Source of the DNA: a bacterium
GTDB lineage: Bacteria > Patescibacteriota > Minisyncoccia > Phycocordibacterales > UBA12445
NCBI GenBank assembly: GCA_030648005.1
Contig: JAUSIP010000001.1
Location: 6,662 to 70,661 of the forward strand
Direction: 5' to 3'
Length of the DNA: 64,000 nucleotides
Each line of letters begins with the position of its first letter. Positions within the stretch are counted from its first letter, which is position 1. The position numbers and the translations under genes were made by a program. This document shows positions 5,399-55,073 of the stretch, piece after piece. The notes beneath the pieces were generated by a model. It was not told the origin of the DNA, did not search any database, and saw only the letters and a program-made list of their open reading frames with translations.

Positions 5399-6730
5399 CT
5401 ATCCGCGTCGTTCTCCATCATCCTCAAATTTAAGTAGGACCCTGAATACCGGCGTTTTGCCGGCTAGCTCTTTGTCACCACCCTTCCAGATAGCCATCAC
5501 GACTCCGGAACCTTCGCCCATTTCAGATATTTCAGGAGTAAGCTTGCCTACGAAAATCCCGCTCGCATCTATTGTTCCAATAGGACCCACAACCCTCCAA
5601 TCTACGGAACTTGTGACATCCTCCTTGCTTCCATCACTTAAAACAAGCATCGCCCTAAAGGCAATTTTCTGCTGTTCTGCAAAATCAGAGTTAATGAAAG
5701 TTCTCGACTCTATAATAAGATCAACAGGAGTACCTCGCCTACTTCTTATTATCCCCCCGATCGGACTATCTATTCTCTGTTCAACATTGTTCAATATCTC
5801 TTTCTTAATTTCCGCCCTCACCTCAGCTCTTACCTCCGCTTTTTTTACCGGTTCCGTAATCTTTCTCTCAACTATTTCTCCCACTCTCCTCTCTTCTGTC
5901 TTAATATTAATTTTGGTCTTCAATTCAGTCCGAACTTCTCTCAATGAATCTTTAAGTAACTCCTCACGCAGTTTTTCCCTCAGAACTCCACGTGACTTCA
6001 GATCTTTCACTTGAACTTCGATCTTAGTATCCTCAGACTCGTTGGCATTCAACCACTCTTGATCTCTAGGCACGATACCCGCGCCTGCGCTAGCCGGACT
6101 AACTGCAACGTCCACAGCGACAACCACCTTTTTATTGACTCTAATCTTCTCAACATCATCATTGGTCCACTCGACAAATTTGCCTTCACTTAGAATTATC
6201 GGTTCTTTGCCGACTCGTTCTCCGGTCTTAGGGTCTATTACCTGGAGAGCAACTGTATGTTGGGATCCAAACATCTTAGAGTGCCCTCCCTCCGAACTCA
6301 TACCAAAAGCCGTACCACGTACGGTCGCCACGGCGTTGGATGTCTTCACCTCCCAGACTGAAGCCGGTGTGGCAAGATCTATCACCTTAGACCAAACTTT
6401 CCCGACCGCCAGGCTAACTTTGACAGAAATAGCTCCGCTTGCTTTGTCGTAATTTCCATCATTCAAGGTGATTGTGGTGCCAGAATCCAAACGAAGCACC
6501 GAGCCGTCCAAGAAGTGCACCTTAGCCTCTCCATCGGTGCTTACTACGAGAGTTATCGGGTAGTCCAAACTGTCTCCACTTTTAAGACCAGAAACTTCCC
6601 CCTTAGTGATAGTTATCCACGGCTTTGTCGGAAGCTCTACAACGGGTGGAATCTCCTTTCCATCACCACCCACTAAAGACAGAAACAAAATAGGGATGAA
6701 TAAAACCGCTGCAATAAATATATTTTTCAT
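5399..6730 (-). CDS. FecR-domain secreted protein with C-terminal Big_2-like domain
   Basis: Signal peptide; VKTSNAVATVRGTAFGM (FecR-like); C-terminal Ig-like segment; adjacent to the CHASE2 cyclase. Confidence 0.6.
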   Translation of the reverse strand: MKNIFIAAVLFIPILFLSLVGGDGKEIPPVVELPTKPWITITKGEVSGLKSGDSLDYPITLVVSTDGEAKVHFLDGSVLRLDSGTTITLNDGNYDKASGAISVKVSLAVGKVWSKVIDLATPASVWEVKTSNAVATVRGTAFGMSSEGGHSKMFGSQHTVALQVIDPKTGERVGKEPIILSEGKFVEWTNDDVEKIRVNKKVVVAVDVAVSPASAGAGIVPRDQEWLNANESEDTKIEVQVKDLKSRGVLREKLREELLKDSLREVRTELKTKINIKTEERRVGEIVERKITEPVKKAEVRAEVRAEIKKEILNNVEQRIDSPIGGIIRSRRGTPVDLIIESRTFINSDFAEQQKIAFRAMLVLSDGSKEDVTSSVDWRVVGPIGTIDASGIFVGKLTPEISEMGEGSGVVMAIWKGGDKELAGKTPVFRVLLKFEDDGERRG

Positions 6731-15804: not shown

Positions 15805-17094
15805 TTACTGCCCGATACCTTCATAGTGAAAGCCCAGTGCTTCGGCTTCGGCTTTTTTGTATATATTTCTGGCATCTACAATATTGGCACGGCCGATATT
15901 TTTCTTTATCTGTAGAAGTGTGATCTCCCTAAACTGCTTCCACTCGGTCATGATAACCAAACAATCCGCATCCTTTAACATACCTAGGGAATTATTACTG
16001 AATGTTATTTGTGGAAAAAGCTGTCTACCATTCGCTTCAGCCACCGGATCAAAACAGACCACCTCGGCGCCTGCACTCAGAAGATCCTCGACAAGCCTAA
16101 CTGCCGGAGATTCGCGAAGATCATCCGTCTCCGGCTTGAAGGCAAGTCCCCAAACCGCCACCTTCTTGCCATGTAAACCCTTCACCAGTCCCACAACCTT
16201 AGCTAAAACTCGATCACCTTGTCTTTTATTTATCTCTTCAGTTACATTCAGCAGAGGTAGTTCTGTGTCATACTTCCTCGCTGTGCTGATGAGGCCCTTA
16301 ACATCCTTAGGAAAGCACGATCCACCATATCCGGGGCCGGCATTCAAGAATGCGCGCTTGCCAATCCTCTGATCAAGCTTCATACCGAGTGCCACTTCAT
16401 CAACATTAGCTCCTATCTTCTCACAGAGTTCTGAGAGACTGTTAATGAACGATATGGAGACAGCAAGATAAGCGTTGGAGGCATACTTGATCATCTCGGC
16501 TGTTCTGACATCAGTGAAGAGTATCTCGGTTTTTATAAGTGAATACAGCTCCTGCATTATCTTCTTGGCACGGCCTAGTGGTACTCCGATAACAACTCTG
16601 TCTGGCTTCAAAAAATCAGATATCGCCTGGCCTTCACGCAGAAACTCGGGGTTTGAGACCACGTCGAATTTTACTTTCGCATGTTTCTCTAAGATCTTGG
16701 CAACTCTCTCCCCTGTCCCAACAGGGACCGTAGACTTATTTATAACAACAGCATACTTACGCATATTTCTTCCGATCTCTTCAGCCGCACGCTCAATATA
16801 TTTTGTCTCCACAGTCCCATCTTTTTTAGAAGGAGTGCCGACCGCTATAAAAATAACATCCGCATGTGCTATACCCTCCTCTGTATTATTGAAAAATTTT
16901 ATCCGTCCCTTCTTTATATTTTTAACAAGCAACGTCTCTATTCCCGGTTCGTATATCGGCGAGATCCCCTTCTTCAAATCCTCTATCTTCTGCTTATCTA
17001 TATCAACACAAGATACTTCATAACCCAGTTCAGCAAAGCATACCCCAGTCACCAAACCCACATACCCTGTACCCATTACACTAATTCTCTTCAT
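15805..17094 (-). CDS. UDP-glucose/GDP-mannose 6-dehydrogenase family enzyme
   Basis: MKRISVMGTGYVGLVTGVCFAELG Rossmann N-terminus; length and family pattern. Confidence 0.85.
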   Translation of the reverse strand: MKRISVMGTGYVGLVTGVCFAELGYEVSCVDIDKQKIEDLKKGISPIYEPGIETLLVKNIKKGRIKFFNNTEEGIAHADVIFIAVGTPSKKDGTVETKYIERAAEEIGRNMRKYAVVINKSTVPVGTGERVAKILEKHAKVKFDVVSNPEFLREGQAISDFLKPDRVVIGVPLGRAKKIMQELYSLIKTEILFTDVRTAEMIKYASNAYLAVSISFINSLSELCEKIGANVDEVALGMKLDQRIGKRAFLNAGPGYGGSCFPKDVKGLISTARKYDTELPLLNVTEEINKRQGDRVLAKVVGLVKGLHGKKVAVWGLAFKPETDDLRESPAVRLVEDLLSAGAEVVCFDPVAEANGRQLFPQITFSNNSLGMLKDADCLVIMTEWKQFREITLLQIKKNIGRANIVDARNIYKKAEAEALGFHYEGIGQ

Positions 17095-17650: not shown

Positions 17651-17825
17651 GAATTTTCAACTCCTTATCTTCCATAAAAAGTATAACAAAAAAAGCCGAC
17701 TAAGTCAATAGCTGGCTTTTTCTTACGCCCCGAGCCGAGTTTTAAATCCTAACGTGCCAGTAAAGGTAAACTTTGTTGCACTGGTATTTTAAAACTCAGC
17801 TCGAAGCTCGAACTCGGACTATCCA

Positions 17826-17923
17826 CTTAGCGCATAACTTTGTCGAAAGCTCCATTTGCTTCTCAATGTACTGTTAGTACATCTTCGTCGCAAGATTCGC
17901 TTTCTTCGCGTTCTGCATCTAAG
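17826..17923 (-). repeat. conserved ~100-nt 3'-UTR repeat element, copy B (3' of the helicase gene)
   Basis: CTTAGCGCATAACTTTGTCGAAAGCTCC...TGTACTGTTAGTACA...GCGTTCTGCATCTAAG. Confidence 0.8.
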
Positions 17924-17941
17924 TGTCTAAGTCCTTTGTGT

Positions 17942-22685: not shown

Positions 22686-22793
22686 GGCCCTATCGTTCCC
22701 GATTTTATTACGATTTCGTTACAGCGAAATCTCCATAAAATCGAGGATCCTCGACCCTGTGGGGTCGGGACTATCGGTTAGGACACGGCCTTT
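22686..22793 (+). pseudogene. orphan tRNA-Glu 5' half (to the anticodon loop) interrupted in the D-arm by a MITE
   Basis: GGCCCTATCGT + 75-bp element + CTATCGGTTAGGACACGGCCTTT is identical to positions 1-34 of tRNA-Glu at 22931; no 3' half follows. Confidence 0.7.
22697..22771. repeat. miniature inverted-repeat element, copy 2 (TCCCGATTTT...GGGGTCGGGAC)
   Basis: Shares its ends and the internal ATCGAGGATCC core with the copies at 2723 and 53662. Confidence 0.7.
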
Positions 22794-22915
22794 GAGAGGT
22801 GAGGATGGGGTAAGGGGTCCCATCCGCAAGACCTTTTGAGGTAGTTTGCGAGCTAGTGAAGCAAAATATCCAAAAGGTGTACTGCTCCCGTAGGGAGGGA
22901 AACGCAGTGAGGCAT
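22794..22915 (+). ncRNA. conserved structured element X between the orphan 5' half and tRNA-Glu
   Basis: GAGGTGAGG-hairpin-CGCAAGACCTTTTGAG...AATATCCAAAAGGTGTACTG-hairpin. A homolog lies upstream of tRNA-Gly (33021..33122) and shows compensatory hairpin changes. Confidence 0.5.
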
Positions 22916-22930
22916 TTTAAAAAACTATAC

Positions 22931-23002: not shown

Positions 23003-23139
23003 TTGCGAAGCAAGGAGACTAAGTGAATGAACTGCTTCATTCACGCCAGAGAGTCGAAGCCCGATTGAGATAGTTTATGATTCCGAGTTTATCGAGGAAG
23101 AAATAAAATATCCAATTGGGGTACTGTTCCTGTAAGGAA

Positions 23140-23158
23140 CGACTCTCTGTAGGGTCAT
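23140..23158 (+). repeat. direct orphan copy of the tRNA-Glu 3' end (CGACTCTCTGTAGGGTCAT)
   Basis: 19-nt identity with 22984..23003; preceded by the GGGTACTG-hairpin motif. Confidence 0.8.
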
Positions 23159-23172
23159 CGCGAAATACCACC

Positions 23173-24229: not shown

Positions 24230-24249
24230 CAACGAACGAAGTGAGGCGG

Positions 24250-24270
24250 GCACATGCCTGGACTCGAACC
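24250..24270 (+). repeat. inverted copy of the tRNA-Val T-arm/acceptor 3' strand (GCACATGCCTGGACTCGAACC)
   Basis: Reverse complement of 24209..24228 with one mismatch. Confidence 0.8.
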
Positions 24271-24349
24271 TCGAAAGGGGCCGGGAAAACTGTAGTTTTC
24301 CCGTGGAGGAAGGATTGGGAAAACCGTGGGTTTCCCAGTGTGTGAGTAC

Positions 24350-24364
24350 TCCAGGCATGCGCAC
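24350..24364 (+). repeat. direct orphan copy of the tRNA-Val 3' end (TCCAGGCATGCGCAC)
   Basis: 15-nt identity with 24216..24230. Confidence 0.8.
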
Positions 24365-24374
24365 CAGAATAATC

Positions 24375-29698: not shown

Positions 29699-29703
29699 AA
29701 AAA

Positions 29704-29725
29704 ATCCCCATAAGGGGATTTTTAC
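29704..29725 (+). terminator. hairpin terminator after tRNA-Phe
   Basis: ATCCCCATAAGGGGAT plus T5. Confidence 0.65.
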
Positions 29726-29943
29726 TTGCCGAGGGAGAACGCCAACTGCTTGGCGTTCGTGCGGATTTGAAAGCCACAGCCATGTCCCATGGGGACAGGC
29801 GAGGCGGGGTCGAGAGTACTTAGTCCGCGCAATTTCGCTTTAGCGAAATGAGCAGACTTAGTAACTCGTGACCTAATCCCCCGAAGCTTGGTAAGGACAA
29901 TTTATTTGGAATTAAAATCGGCATAATTAAACAACCGGTTGTT

Positions 29944-29957
29944 CCCTCGGCACCAAA
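29944..29957 (+). repeat. direct orphan copy of the tRNA-Phe 3' end (CCCTCGGCACCAAA)
   Basis: 14-nt identity with 29685..29698+; preceded by the palindrome AACAACCGGTTGTT. Confidence 0.7.
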
Positions 29958-30596: not shown

Positions 30597-30686
30597 TTCT
30601 GCCCAAGCGGATAGGTTTGGTATATAGGGAATCACAAGAGACTTCATTAATTCAGTTCTAACATCATCCACCAGAGTGCACCAAAC

Positions 30687-30740
30687 AAAAAAAACTCGAA
30701 GTGAGTCTTCCTATACAGGAAGACTCACTTCGAGTTTTTG
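30687..30740. repeat. 45-bp perfect hairpin repeat, copy 1 (19-bp stem ACTCGAAGTGAGTCTTCCT)
   Basis: Near-identical copy at 44118..44170; flanked by A/T runs, so it can act as a bidirectional terminator. Confidence 0.8.
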
Positions 30741-31055: not shown

Positions 31056-31654
31056 TAATTATATAATAACAAAAAAAGACCCCGGGGACAATCCCGGGGC
31101 CACAACCTCGCATGCTTAGCTAGCTACTCCTTTGACTACTTCGACCTCAGCCTTTTTTCTGCTCGATGCTCTCTTGCCACCAGATAAGATACCGGCACCA
31201 AGTACAAAACCGAAGTTATACCAACCACCATTGTTATGAACCTCATACAGACACACATCACTCGAGAAAAGCGAAATGATCCATGTGATCGGCGCGATTA
31301 TTCCGTGCTACAGACCGAGCCAGAACCCAGCAATATTTCCGTCCGAAGCTGGAACATTCACCGTAGTATTTGGACCGGGGGTACAACCAGTCAGAAGCAG
31401 TACCCCACCCAAGAACAATAGACCGAGCAAGTGTGTTTTCCTCATTGTTCCATCCTTCGAGTTAGAAACGTACACGATCTAGAGAATAGAGTATCATTTA
31501 TATTAAATAAGTCAATAACAAGGAATCTCGCCCTACGGGCGCTGGTACTTTTCGCTCCGATATCCATCGGAGAACGAAAAGTCTTTCGATTCCCCGGCGC
31601 AGGCAAAGCAGTTTGCCTGCTCGGGAGCACAAAAAACCGCTCCGCTCTTGTTTG

Positions 31655-33010: not shown

Positions 33011-33020
33011 TTTTCTAAAT

Positions 33021-33156
33021 TAAATCTCATCCTTACAGGATCTGTACACCTTTTGGATATATTCTCGCACAAACTCAAATATATCTCAAAAGGTCTTGCG
33101 GCGCTAAGCGCGCCTCACCTCAGGAAGGTCGCATCCTACCACTGAACTATACCCGC
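33021..33156 (-). ncRNA. orphan tRNA 5' half (GCGGGTATAGTTCAGTGGTAGGATGCGACCTTCC) fused to conserved structured element X, immediately upstream of tRNA-Gly
   Basis: Minus-strand sequence TGAGGTGAGG-GGCGCGCTTAGCGCC-GCAAGACCTTTTGAG...AATATATCCAAAAGGTGTACAG-ATCCTGTAAGGAT is homologous to 22794..22915. Confidence 0.55.
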
Positions 33157-33163
33157 TTAAAAA

Positions 33164-33502: not shown

Positions 33503-33705
33503 ATATTTCTTCCACCTTTTCTTTTCTTGTAAATCTCTCACCAACGTATTATAGTATATGGATAATATACCCACAATGTTATTTCACAAAGAAAACAAAA
33601 AGAAGATAAATCTGCTCTGGAGTATTATGTGTGTACTCCTAGCGATCAGTATGGTACTGCTCTACATCCCAGCCTTCTACCAGTAAAACCTATATACTTA
33701 GCGCA

Positions 33706-33792
33706 TAACTTTGTCGGAGACTGCGTTTATTCCTCACTGTACTATTTGTACAGTTTCGTCATAAGCCTCGCCTCCTTCGCGTTCTGCATCTA
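33706..33792 (-). repeat. conserved ~100-nt 3'-UTR repeat element, copy C (3' of lepA)
   Basis: CTTAGCGCATAACTTTGTCGGAGAC...TGTACTATTTGTACA...GCGTTCTGCATCTAAG. Confidence 0.8.
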
Positions 33793-33820
33793 AGTCTATC
33801 AGTTTTAGAATTTTGGGATT

Positions 33821-43918: not shown

Positions 43919-44117
43919 GGTGTATCCTCCTTATCAATGAACCCAGCCCATCCACACCAAAACTACCACATTAGTATGTGGCTGTCTATTGATGAAATTT
44001 ATACGGAAGAAAAAACTATTTCTTTGCCTTCTTCGGCTTCTTCTTCTCCTTTCTATGTCCGTCTCCTTTTGCCATATCTAAATTATAACATCACTCCTCC
44101 CAAAACTTATCCACAGT

Positions 44118-44170
44118 AAAAACTCGAAGTGAGTCTTCCTATATAGGAAGACTCACTTCGAGTTTTTTTA
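44118..44170. repeat. 45-bp perfect hairpin repeat, copy 2
   Basis: Identical 19-bp stem to copy 1; loop ATATA; followed by T7. Confidence 0.8.
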
Positions 44171-53661: not shown

Positions 53662-53708
53662 GTCCCGATTCGATTCATCGAATCGAGGATCCCGACAGGG
53701 GTCGGGAC
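53662..53708. repeat. miniature inverted-repeat element, copy 3, inserted in an orphan tRNA-Asn 5' fragment
   Basis: GTCCCGATTCGATTCATCGAATCGAGGATCCCGACAGGGGTCGGGAC, flanked by TCCTCGGTA and TCAGTGGTTTAGTTGTTAAC (tRNA-Asn positions 1-9 and roughly 12-38). Confidence 0.75.
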
Positions 53709-53810: not shown

Positions 53811-53948
53811 AGTGAGCGAAGCGAACGCTCCACGAGCAAGCAAACTGCTTTGCTTGCGTGGTAGGATTCGAAAAGGTTCTCCGTTATCCGATGGCAATCG
53901 GATCGGAAACCTGTACCGTTCATGTAATGAAAGAATCCTTCTAAAAAA

Positions 53949-54566
53949 ATGAAAAACCCCAAAGTAATAATCTACGACAACGACGGAATGATCTGCCATA
54001 GTGGCCGATTTAGCGACAGTTATTCTAAGGAGTTTGGGATTGAGATGGATATAATGAGTCCCTTTTTCGAAGGACCATTTAAAAACTGTCTCGTTGGAAA
54101 AGCAGACCTGAAAGAGGAGTTAGAAAAAGTTTTAGATATATGGAACTGGAAAGGGACAGCCAACCAGCTTCTTGATTACTGGTTTTCAGTAGGAAGCACG
54201 CTCGACGAGAAAGTTTTCCCTACTATTTCAAAATTTAAAGATCAAGGTCTAATAGTATGTCTGGCAACTAATCAGGAAAAATATCGAAAAGAATATTTAG
54301 TTACAAAATTTGGATACGACAAAGTATTTAATGAAATCTTTTCTTCTGCAGAACTAGGCGCTTATAAGAACAGCGAGAAGGGTCTCCAAAAAACTTTCGA
54401 CATCTTGAAAGATAAATATGGCATTGAAGATAGAGACGAGATCATGTACTGGGATGACCGAGAAGGAAATGTTGAACATATAAATCAGTTTGGTATGAAC
54501 GGTCAGCATTATAAAAATTATGAGGAGTTTAGGGATGTAATGGCCGGTCTTGGCTACTTAGTTTAA
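53949..54566 (+). CDS. HAD-superfamily hydrolase
   Basis: IIYDNDGMI (motif I), LATNQ, WDD. Confidence 0.6.
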   Translation: MKNPKVIIYDNDGMICHSGRFSDSYSKEFGIEMDIMSPFFEGPFKNCLVGKADLKEELEKVLDIWNWKGTANQLLDYWFSVGSTLDEKVFPTISKFKDQGLIVCLATNQEKYRKEYLVTKFGYDKVFNEIFSSAELGAYKNSEKGLQKTFDILKDKYGIEDRDEIMYWDDREGNVEHINQFGMNGQHYKNYEEFRDVMAGLGYLV

Positions 54567-54570
54567 TTTT

Positions 54571-54972
54571 ATGCAAAATAAAACAACTCACGAATCATTT
54601 GTTTTAAGACAATCCACACTTCCAAGTGCAGGAATCGGAGTGATTACCTTACACGACATAGCCAAGGGTACATATATGGAGCTTTTTCGTGATGGTTTTG
54701 AGGAGGAAATTAGGGATGAGTCTGATGTGCCGAAGCCACTCAGGGCATACTGTCTCTATCAGGGTAATGGCAAGATCTTATGTCCAAAAATGTTCAATCG
54801 TATGGATATCGGAAATTATCTCAATCACTCAGAGAACTGGAATATGGTCTATGAAAAAGGCAGGGGTTACTTTGCTTCTCGAGATATTAGAGCCGGAGAG
54901 GAACTCTTTGCCAACTATAGAGATCTGGGAGAGCCCGAAGACCAGAGAGAGGAGTATTACAAGGTGCATTAA
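54571..54972 (+). CDS. SET-domain protein (putative lysine methyltransferase)
   Basis: NHSENWN and GEELFANY motifs. Confidence 0.6.
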   Translation: MQNKTTHESFVLRQSTLPSAGIGVITLHDIAKGTYMELFRDGFEEEIRDESDVPKPLRAYCLYQGNGKILCPKMFNRMDIGNYLNHSENWNMVYEKGRGYFASRDIRAGEELFANYRDLGEPEDQREEYYKVH

Positions 54973-55043
54973 TACTTTGACCTTCAGCATTTCTTGGAGC
55001 AGAGCGAGTACGATGCGAAAGGTGTACTGTTCCCGTAATGAAA

Positions 55044-55061
55044 GAATCCTACCCGGGGAGC
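55044..55061 (+). repeat. direct orphan copy of the tRNA-Asn 3' end (GAATCCTACCCGGGGAGC)
   Basis: 18-nt identity with 53791..53808; preceded by the GGTGTACTG-hairpin motif. Confidence 0.8.
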
Positions 55062-55073
55062 AAAAATAAAATA

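Follow-up and report, generated by a model that had tools for sequence, protein, structure and literature searches.

The DNA analyzed here is a 64-kb window (64,000 nt) of contig JAUSIP010000001.1, from a bacterium of the Patescibacteriota, and its subject is a small hairpin with a CTGC loop that recurs behind tRNA genes. ARAGORN and Rfam together placed seven tRNA genes in the window, and a hairpin search found exactly four perfect CTGC-loop hairpins, each with a stem of 9 bp. All four lie on the strand of the tRNA that they follow: the hairpin at 23023-23044 (plus strand) starts 20 nt 3' of tRNA-Glu, that at 29737-29758 (plus) starts 38 nt 3' of tRNA-Phe, that at 53836-53857 (plus; GCAAGCAAA-CTGC-TTTGCTTGC, extendable to 53832-53861) starts 25 nt 3' of tRNA-Asn, and that at 31599-31620 (minus) starts 33 nt 3' of tRNA-Arg. 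No further CTGC hairpin with a stem of at least 5 bp occurs in the 64 kb, and a fifth AACTGCTT at 15932 forms no hairpin. Because the window holds only 44 hairpins with stems of at least 7 bp when all 256 tetraloops and both strands are counted, the placement of all four CTGC hairpins just 3' of tRNAs is far beyond chance. The original prediction, made from the letters alone, had named these same four tRNAs, and its hairpins were borne out with stems one pair longer than it gave.

Each tRNA was compared with its own flanks. After the CTGC hairpin there is always a segment complementary, in reverse, to the 3' strand of the T stem and to the T-loop, ending in ..TCGAA or TTGAA, and before it, in the Phe and Arg copies and partly in Asn, a segment that complements the acceptor 3' strand in the same way. 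The hairpin therefore splits an antisense copy of the last ~20 nt of that tRNA. Next is a structured body of about 60-130 nt, and behind it an orphan, a direct copy of everything in the tRNA from the T-loop on, which starts at 23140 for Glu, 24350 for Val, 29944 for Phe, and 55044 for Asn (with an additional 7-nt stub at 53933); Arg has only a stub at 31521-31527. Five of the seven tRNAs carry such an element, and tRNA-Ser and tRNA-Gly have neither a hairpin nor a downstream orphan in the window, as had been noticed earlier. The suspected link of the hairpin to orphan tRNA 3' ends was correct and proved to be the key. The antisense context and the structured body had been missed, as had the different identity of the hairpin at tRNA-Val, which had been taken for a looser variant of the CTGC hairpin; its loop, C-TGTAG-T, makes it a right-end hairpin of the YGTAR type and a different module.

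The bodies fall into two main types. Type 2, present at tRNA-Glu, tRNA-Arg, and tRNA-Asn, consists of a helix with an inner hairpin, the motif G(T/C)AC(C)TG, and a hairpin with a YGTAR loop, and type 1, present at tRNA-Phe, consists of NNNN-GGAGC.., a hairpin, GCGAG-N'N'N'N', and a GGTCGCGA../..TYGTGACC helix. The tRNA-Glu element (23003..23164, plus) begins with a tip containing GCGAAGC (23003-23022) and continues past its CTGC hairpin with the antisense T arm (23047-23058), a type-2 body (23059-23139) that includes GTAC at 23121-23124, a TGTAA-loop hairpin at 23126-23140, and the orphan (23140-23164). In the tRNA-Arg element (31521..31653, minus), the antisense acceptor strand (31622-31630) precedes the hairpin, the antisense T arm (31585-31597) includes one G.T pair, and the type-2 body (31528-31584) contains GTAC at 31545-31548 and a CGTAG-loop hairpin at 31529-31541 ahead of the short orphan GATTCCT. 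The tRNA-Phe element (29699..29955, plus) opens with a terminator-like hairpin (29699-29723), followed by the antisense acceptor strand (29727-29735), the CTGC hairpin, the antisense T arm (29761-29771), and a type-1 body running to ..CTCGTGACC (29772-29873); a degenerate orphan (29874-29882) and a second one (29944-29955) lie behind it. The tRNA-Val element (24231..24366, plus) keeps the common plan with its antisense segment uninterrupted: the tip ACGAACGAAGTGAGG, continuous antisense at 24253-24270 with no CTGC hairpin, the TGTAG-loop hairpin at 24283-24302, a second hairpin at 24317-24336, GTAC at 24346-24349, and an orphan with the original CCA at 24350-24366.

At tRNA-Asn, the left end of the element (53811..53831, plus) comprises a purine-rich tip that carries a mini-hairpin, GCGAAGC, and a short stretch, GCTCC, antisense to the acceptor 3' strand. 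Behind the CTGC hairpin are the antisense T-stem 3' strand and T-loop, GGTAGGATTCGAA (53860..53872, plus), and then, at 53873..53939 (plus), a type-2 body made up of helix P2 with its inner hairpin, GTAC, and a TGTAA-loop hairpin, followed by the short orphan GAATCCT (53933-53939). A second right-end module, GGTGTAC.. (55003-55043, plus), is followed by the full orphan tRNA-Asn 3' end (55044-55064). Between the two right-end modules, each followed by GAATCCT, positions 53940-55043 hold a weakly HAD-like hydrolase gene (205 aa) and a SET-domain gene (133 aa), and these genes may be rare cargo of an older element. Homologues of the SET gene, whose gene contexts were compared as a test for cargo, were found in varying contexts with no consistent tRNA neighborhood.

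A family of elements across metagenomes

Metagenomes were scanned for the stem and loop common to the window copies at Arg and Asn, two of the stem pairs being kept free, and the scan returned at least 120 loci. The free pairs are complementary in 124 of the 129 matches listed, in nine combinations, which independently confirms the stem covariation first proposed from the window. Of these listed matches, 88 lie 6-76 nt 3' of same-strand tRNA genes of most amino acid identities, and others among the listed loci follow transfer-messenger RNA (tmRNA) 3' ends, tRNAs with group I introns, and, in one instance, a protein gene. CTGC-loop hairpins number 144 in the scanned loci and the next most common loop 18; within 90 nt 3' of a tRNA or tmRNA there are 98, against at most 4 for any other loop. 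Twenty more stem variants were present among the scanned loci. The 24 distinct hairpins show double changes at 8 of the 9 pairs and one-sided (G.U-type) changes at none, a count with some circularity, since a part of these hairpins had been picked up by demanding a perfect stem. The closing AA/TT pairs, at first described as constant, are so within the window, but GA/TC, AC/GT, and GC/GC occur as well in the wider family.

Read along the tRNA strand, the elements share a common plan. A tRNA copy from the T-loop (about C56) to the 3' end, which completes the working gene, comes first and is followed by a tip that is either an A-tract/GC-stem/T-tract terminator-like palindrome or a purine-rich loop, often with GCGAAGC. 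After the tip come the exact Watson-Crick complement of the acceptor 3' strand, A or GA, the CTGC hairpin, GT (GC in some copies), and an antisense T arm of ~11 nt, complementary to the T-stem 3' strand and T-loop and ending in ..TCGAA; the structured body and the displaced original 3' end, now an orphan, come last. The terminator-like hairpin separates the tRNA from the CTGC hairpin in about half of the family. The elements are non-coding and measure about 120-250 bp, and the hairpin branches off opposite tRNA position 64/65, at a constant distance from the tRNA end, with 61 records pairing at 9.5/12 or better. The same hairpin elements follow tmRNA (ssrA) 3' ends (..CCATCTCCAC) at loci L153, L155, L163, L199, L213, and L223, where the antisense segments fit the tmRNA T arm and acceptor strand.

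We conclude with high confidence that the CTGC hairpin is the most conserved module of a new and abundant element family, one that is non-autonomous and targets the tRNA and tmRNA genes of Patescibacteria, also known as the Candidate Phyla Radiation (CPR). The hosts are these ultra-small groundwater bacteria, presumably so for the metagenome loci as well. The family is abundant yet undescribed, given that it occupies 5/7 of the window tRNAs and at least 120 metagenome loci and is absent from Rfam 15 and from the literature searched, which holds no description of these elements. It accounts for orphan tRNA ends and tRNA fragments in CPR genomes, a source of annotation confusion, and it implies that tRNA genes are repeatedly rebuilt by parasites that are obliged to keep them functional.

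No open reading frame (ORF) fits within an element, and no protein family recurs within 4 kb of the copies in 120 loci. The ~50 window ORFs scanned are ordinary housekeeping genes among which we found no integrase, transposase (Y1 transposases included), or reverse transcriptase, and neither in the 120 loci nor among these ORFs does an integrase gene lie inside or beside an element. In Rfam 15, only tRNA reached the gathering score in the window, and the elements of 15 loci had no match at E<=1. Phage and plasmid collections gave no match. In viral contigs, the hairpin pattern gave one chance match with a non-complementary stem, a looser hairpin-plus-TCGAA pattern gave no complementary stem among the matches listed, and the right-end pattern gave three matches by pattern alone. 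Exact-protein matches to window genes lay on short contigs only, one of which begins inside the hairpin.

Insertion, replacement, and turnover

In the relative L001, whose TsaD is 67% identical, tRNA-Val is identical through the discriminator base and then reads directly into CCA with no element. In the window, that CCA is kept by the orphan and is missing from the copy that completes the working tRNA-Val gene. Exact orphan matches of at least 10 nt lie within 220 nt downstream of 45 of the 88 tRNA-linked copies, and degenerate orphans accompany most of the others. A direct repeat of the gene 3' part thus flanks the insert, the gene is restored, and an empty site is present in L001, as in a tRNA-integrating element. 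Other relatives have no such structure at their tRNAs either, and on that ground we rejected a host-native feature duplicated by insertion of the body alone.

The left copy arrives with the element. At L172 (about 5600-5900, plus), the target is a protein gene, with the element at its 3' end; the last ~70 nt (~23 codons) of that gene occur twice, clearly diverged, on either side of the element, and these two diverged gene ends indicate that the element carried its own replacement end. Replacement and orphan copies also differ in L221 and at the CCA of the window Val element; the left copy is therefore element-borne, and a fixed-length target-site duplication was rejected for the same differences. 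An all-against-all megablast of the 120 loci returned no empty/filled pairs and no close pairs.

The orphans decay, the acceptor part faster than the T part, and in tandem stacks the older copies lie downstream and are truncated, often at a hairpin apex. New copies enter at the working gene, and older ones are shifted downstream to decay. Bodies at different tRNAs can be 78-83% identical while their antisense segments are unrelated, and the target-matched part is therefore exchanged faster than point mutation allows.

The folding strand and possible roles of the hairpin

At acceptor stems with non-Watson-Crick pairs, the antisense segment complements the 3' strand exactly in 18 of 22 cases, and the G3.U70 pair of tRNA-Ala, for instance, becomes A-U in it. 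A copy of the tRNA 5' strand was rejected as its origin, with 0 of 22 informative positions. The complementarity runs on into the element's own trailer, so that the tRNA 3' segment, the tip, and the antisense form one long fold-back. The sense-strand fold of the bodies is the more stable in 42 of 45 with RNA parameters and in 43 of 45 with DNA parameters, and loop motifs strongly favor one strand (CGAAG 27 versus CTTCG 1; GCGAAGC 11 versus 0). The compensatory changes of the hairpin and the strand-specific folding of the body are what a structured single-stranded element would display, and the folding molecule that the evidence favors is a single strand with the polarity of the tRNA. Neither the hairpin nor the 129 listed matches contain G.U-type intermediates, the two most common variants differing by A-T versus G-C. 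Because of this lack of intermediates, the strictly Watson-Crick antisense, and the terminator that often precedes the antisense part, we lean toward DNA rather than RNA as the folding strand.

Several known structures were considered and rejected. A retroviral-type primer-binding site does not fit, as the pairing follows the gene-encoded trailer and not CCA, reaches position 54, and is broken by the hairpin. A hammerhead or other known ribozyme is not matched by the strands at the junction, and there is no Rfam match; a group I intron remnant would require a core, which is absent, and the tRNA is intact. A pseudoknot between the CTGC loop and a GNAG in the body was discarded, as the loop is invariant while N varies.

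We favor a reading, with a probability of roughly 0.4 to 0.5, in which site-specific recombination uses a single-stranded replica of the target in folded form, with the hairpin as its branch and as a protein handle. The unit would move as a single strand of tRNA polarity, probably DNA, whose tRNA 3' segment and antisense copy would fold back into a duplex replica of the target. The hairpin would protrude as a fixed branch opposite 64/65, which is one turn of the helix away from the T-loop, the place at which the element and tRNA sequences diverge. An enzyme acting in trans, either a recombinase or a nuclease, could then recognize the invariant loop and the junction and recombine the element-borne segment with the chromosomal tRNA gene, akin to a folded attC or the CTX-phage attP hairpin, and the hairpin would serve as both the protein handle and a strand or position marker of the recombination site. 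The original prediction had offered a protein-recognition site or a processing or termination signal, and recognition by a protein or other trans factor is still our best guess, toward which the invariant loop on a stem of changing but always paired sequence does point. A tRNA processing or termination signal, however, is unsupported because of the missing T-run, the separate terminator-like hairpin, the bare tRNA-Val of the relative, and the antisense embedding; after the CTGC hairpin come GC or GT and the antisense T arm, never the T-run that follows the GC-rich hairpin of an intrinsic terminator.

A number of points weigh against this recombination account. Cleavage at tyrosine-recombinase sites is expected beside the central irregularity, but the visible sequence boundary is at 55/56 and not at the irregularity at 64/65, and the crossover point is unreadable from the sequence because the partners are identical from 56 to 73. 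The model also leaves unexplained how both the sense and the antisense copies are exchanged at a new tRNA. G.T wobbles occur in body helices (P2 of the window Glu element and, recurrently, the GGTCGCGA/TYGTGACC helix), the choice of DNA over RNA comes from indirect signs, and in many elements no terminator precedes the antisense part, so that these elements could be cotranscribed with the tRNA. The analysis also turned up no recombinase, no circular form, and no near-identical strains that differ by an empty and a filled site.

The main rival, which we regard as rather unlikely, is a tRNA mimic at the RNA level. The element would be transcribed behind its tRNA, and the antisense and orphan would pair into an acceptor-stem/T-stem minihelix, with the CTGC hairpin where a tRNA has its D and anticodon arms and the body where it has its T-loop; maturation by RNase P, RNase Z, and the CCA-adding enzyme would yield a discrete tRNA-like RNA that serves as a decoy, a regulator, or a template or primer for retro-copying. 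Minimum free energy folds of every window copy do close the body by a helix of antisense T arm and orphan, orphans keep their T-loop/T-stem part better than their acceptor part, and both the sense-strand-specific folding and the G.T wobbles in body helices agree with an RNA. So do the D-loop-type relatives, in which the hairpin comes straight after a true 5' strand of the acceptor stem, with an antisense acceptor segment to close the unit, and the short-tip elements without a preceding terminator. In about half of the copies, however, a terminator-like hairpin stands between the tRNA and the antisense part, and the acceptor strand of the orphan is in many cases degenerate or only 7 nt in length (as at Arg and Asn in the window), whereas the antisense acceptor segment still fits the upstream working tRNA and its trailer. 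An RNA mimic has no need of G3.U70-type pairs made Watson-Crick, and the hairpin without G.U intermediates also argues for something else. No promoter was identified, no reverse transcriptase is present among the window ORFs scanned, and group II introns are reported absent from Patescibacteria (PMC13011429), which further counts against a mimic.

Islands and prophages of the T-loop class with tyrosine integrases resemble the elements in their T-loop insertion, their replacement 3' end with the displaced end left as a direct repeat, their tmRNA and protein-gene 3' end targets, and their tandem stacking. The elements might accordingly be decayed remnants of integrase-borne islands or prophages in the T-loop, the hairpin and its flanks being the conserved arm sequence of the attachment site, and the direct repeats from T-loop to tRNA 3' end and the element-borne replacement copy fit this idea, as does the use of tRNA, tmRNA, and protein-gene 3' ends, a classical signature of tyrosine integrases. 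We nevertheless find it improbable. More than 100 independent loci retain the full 120-250 bp architecture together with compensatory changes, unlike the products of random deletions; no integrase lies beside any copy, the antisense segment varies with the target, and there is no true match among those listed for the hairpin patterns in viral contigs and none in phage or plasmid collections. Whereas islands span kilobases and carry an integrase, the elements are 20-100 times smaller and gene-less with no integrase nearby, one family spans most tRNA identities, and an antisense copy of the target is split by a conserved hairpin. Least credible of all, and very improbable, is a tRNA 3' structure selected by the host as a terminator, a 3'-processing signal, or a shield against other integrating elements. 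Its constant place just 3' of tRNAs, the occupation of 5/7 window tRNAs, and the conservation of the hairpin sequence over many metagenomes speak for such a structure, but it has no T-run and often has a separate terminator beside it, it is missing from the orthologous tRNAs of relatives, and the orphan and variable body are always present, with stacking and decay like those of selfish insertions.

Beyond the favored recombination reading, a bolder proposal, which we consider unlikely, is that the elements are protein-less, nucleic-acid-programmed integration cassettes. A ~20-nt antisense guide, split by a protein-binding hairpin, would select any tRNA or tmRNA T arm and acceptor strand and be rewritten from the new target at each move, with the chemistry performed by a widespread enzyme of Patescibacteria. 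If true, this would add a new kind of programmable system for inserting DNA at specific sites and would explain the many tRNA gene fragments in these genomes. Target-matched antisense around a fixed hairpin suggests programmable recognition, and the elements could become a compact tool for targeted insertion if the enzyme partner were found.

Other known systems share some of these traits. Integron attC sites and CTX-phage attP(+) (XerCD) likewise form fold-backs of variable sequence and conserved structure whose stem mimics a duplex site, with an irregularity on one arm that marks the strand, strand-specific folding, mobilization of non-autonomous units in trans, and a fixed entry site that shifts older units. 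Unlike them, the elements have no R/L boxes or GTTRRRY core and their stem sequence is that of the target gene; the stem base is the T-loop (TTCRANY or its complement), the irregularity is a 22-nt hairpin and not single extrahelical bases or a bubble, candidate cargo genes were seen once (window Asn), and there is no IntI. The ends of IS200/IS605 and REP/RAYT (HUH, single-stranded DNA) resemble the elements in a hairpin beside target-complementary bases, strand specificity, and miniature non-autonomous derivatives, but the guides here are ~9 + 11 nt and not 4, a target copy is carried, the elements are tRNA-specific, and no TnpA or RAYT was seen among the window ORFs scanned. Bridge RNAs of IS110 and the exon-binding and intron-binding sites (EBS/IBS) of group II introns also place two target-complementary stretches around a structured insert, with copies matched to their targets, whereas the complementarity here is one-strand and contiguous and no element-encoded protein or ribozyme core was detected. 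The nearest paper (PMC13011429) describes a different thing, the group I introns that occupy the anticodon loop of tRNAs in Patescibacteria. These have the same hosts and tRNA targets and are also small and non-coding, and both occur in L169 and L211, but the introns interrupt the anticodon loop and must splice, whereas the elements leave the tRNA intact, occupy the T-loop and 3' flank, and have no core.

Related inserts and gene fragments

A different, two-hairpin insert, TCCCGATT..AATCGAGGA plus TCC(C/T)CGAC..GTCGGGA, occurs in the window at 22697-22770 and 53663-53707. It splits orphan 5' fragments of tRNA-Glu (1-11 | 12-34) and tRNA-Asn (1-10 | 11-19), and since these split fragments lie upstream of the working Glu and Asn genes, the D-arm region is a second insertion site. 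D-loop-type elements are present at L005 (minus strand, upstream of tRNA-Ser), L156 (538-566), and L247 (10376-10406). In these, a long AT-rich CTGC-loop hairpin comes straight after an orphan tRNA-Ser fragment that ends at position 12, followed by a body of ~110 nt and then by the leader and positions 1-12, repeated in the working gene.

Upstream of tRNA-Glu (22794-22930, plus) and tRNA-Gly(CCC) (33011-33160, minus) are tRNA 5' fragments that end in the anticodon loop; the fragment at Gly is the 5' half of another gene, one that resembles tRNA-Gly(UCC). Both are followed by GAGGTGAGG, a hairpin, GCAAGACCTTTTGAG..CCAAAAGGTGTAC, and a YGTAR-loop hairpin, the module of the type-2 body. At Glu and Gly, this type-2 module is an anticodon-loop insertion with a replacement 5' part.

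Two further repeats were seen in the window. A 114-nt repeat (17819-17932 and 33690-33803, minus strand, 79-82% identity) occurs directly 3' of two genes, those of the DEAD-box helicase and of LepA. Its ends pair as ACTTAG..CTAAGT, inside it are GCGAAG and a hairpin, TGTAC..GTACA, and its likeness to the ACTTAG..CTTAGT arm of type-1 bodies suggests that it may be a related insert. At 30685-30739 and 44113-44167 are 55-nt perfect palindromes, 95% identical, with A-/T-tract flanks (AAAAACTCGAAGTGAGTCTTCC..), a repeated hairpin that resembles a bidirectional terminator, and one of them abuts the 3' end of a PD-(D/E)XK nuclease gene.

In L139, L156, L184, L234, L136, and L137, the orphan T-loop is itself split (CGAT|..|TCC..) by a recurrent insert of ~14 nt, (A)AGCGTACTCGC, which repeats the GTAC motif found before the last hairpin. 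Finally, at L002 (6470-6533), a diverged copy of the 3' two-thirds of a tRNA, with CCA at its end, begins 16 nt after a tRNA-Arg gene with no element between them, and this tRNA-Arg gene looks to have been overwritten from the anticodon arm onward.
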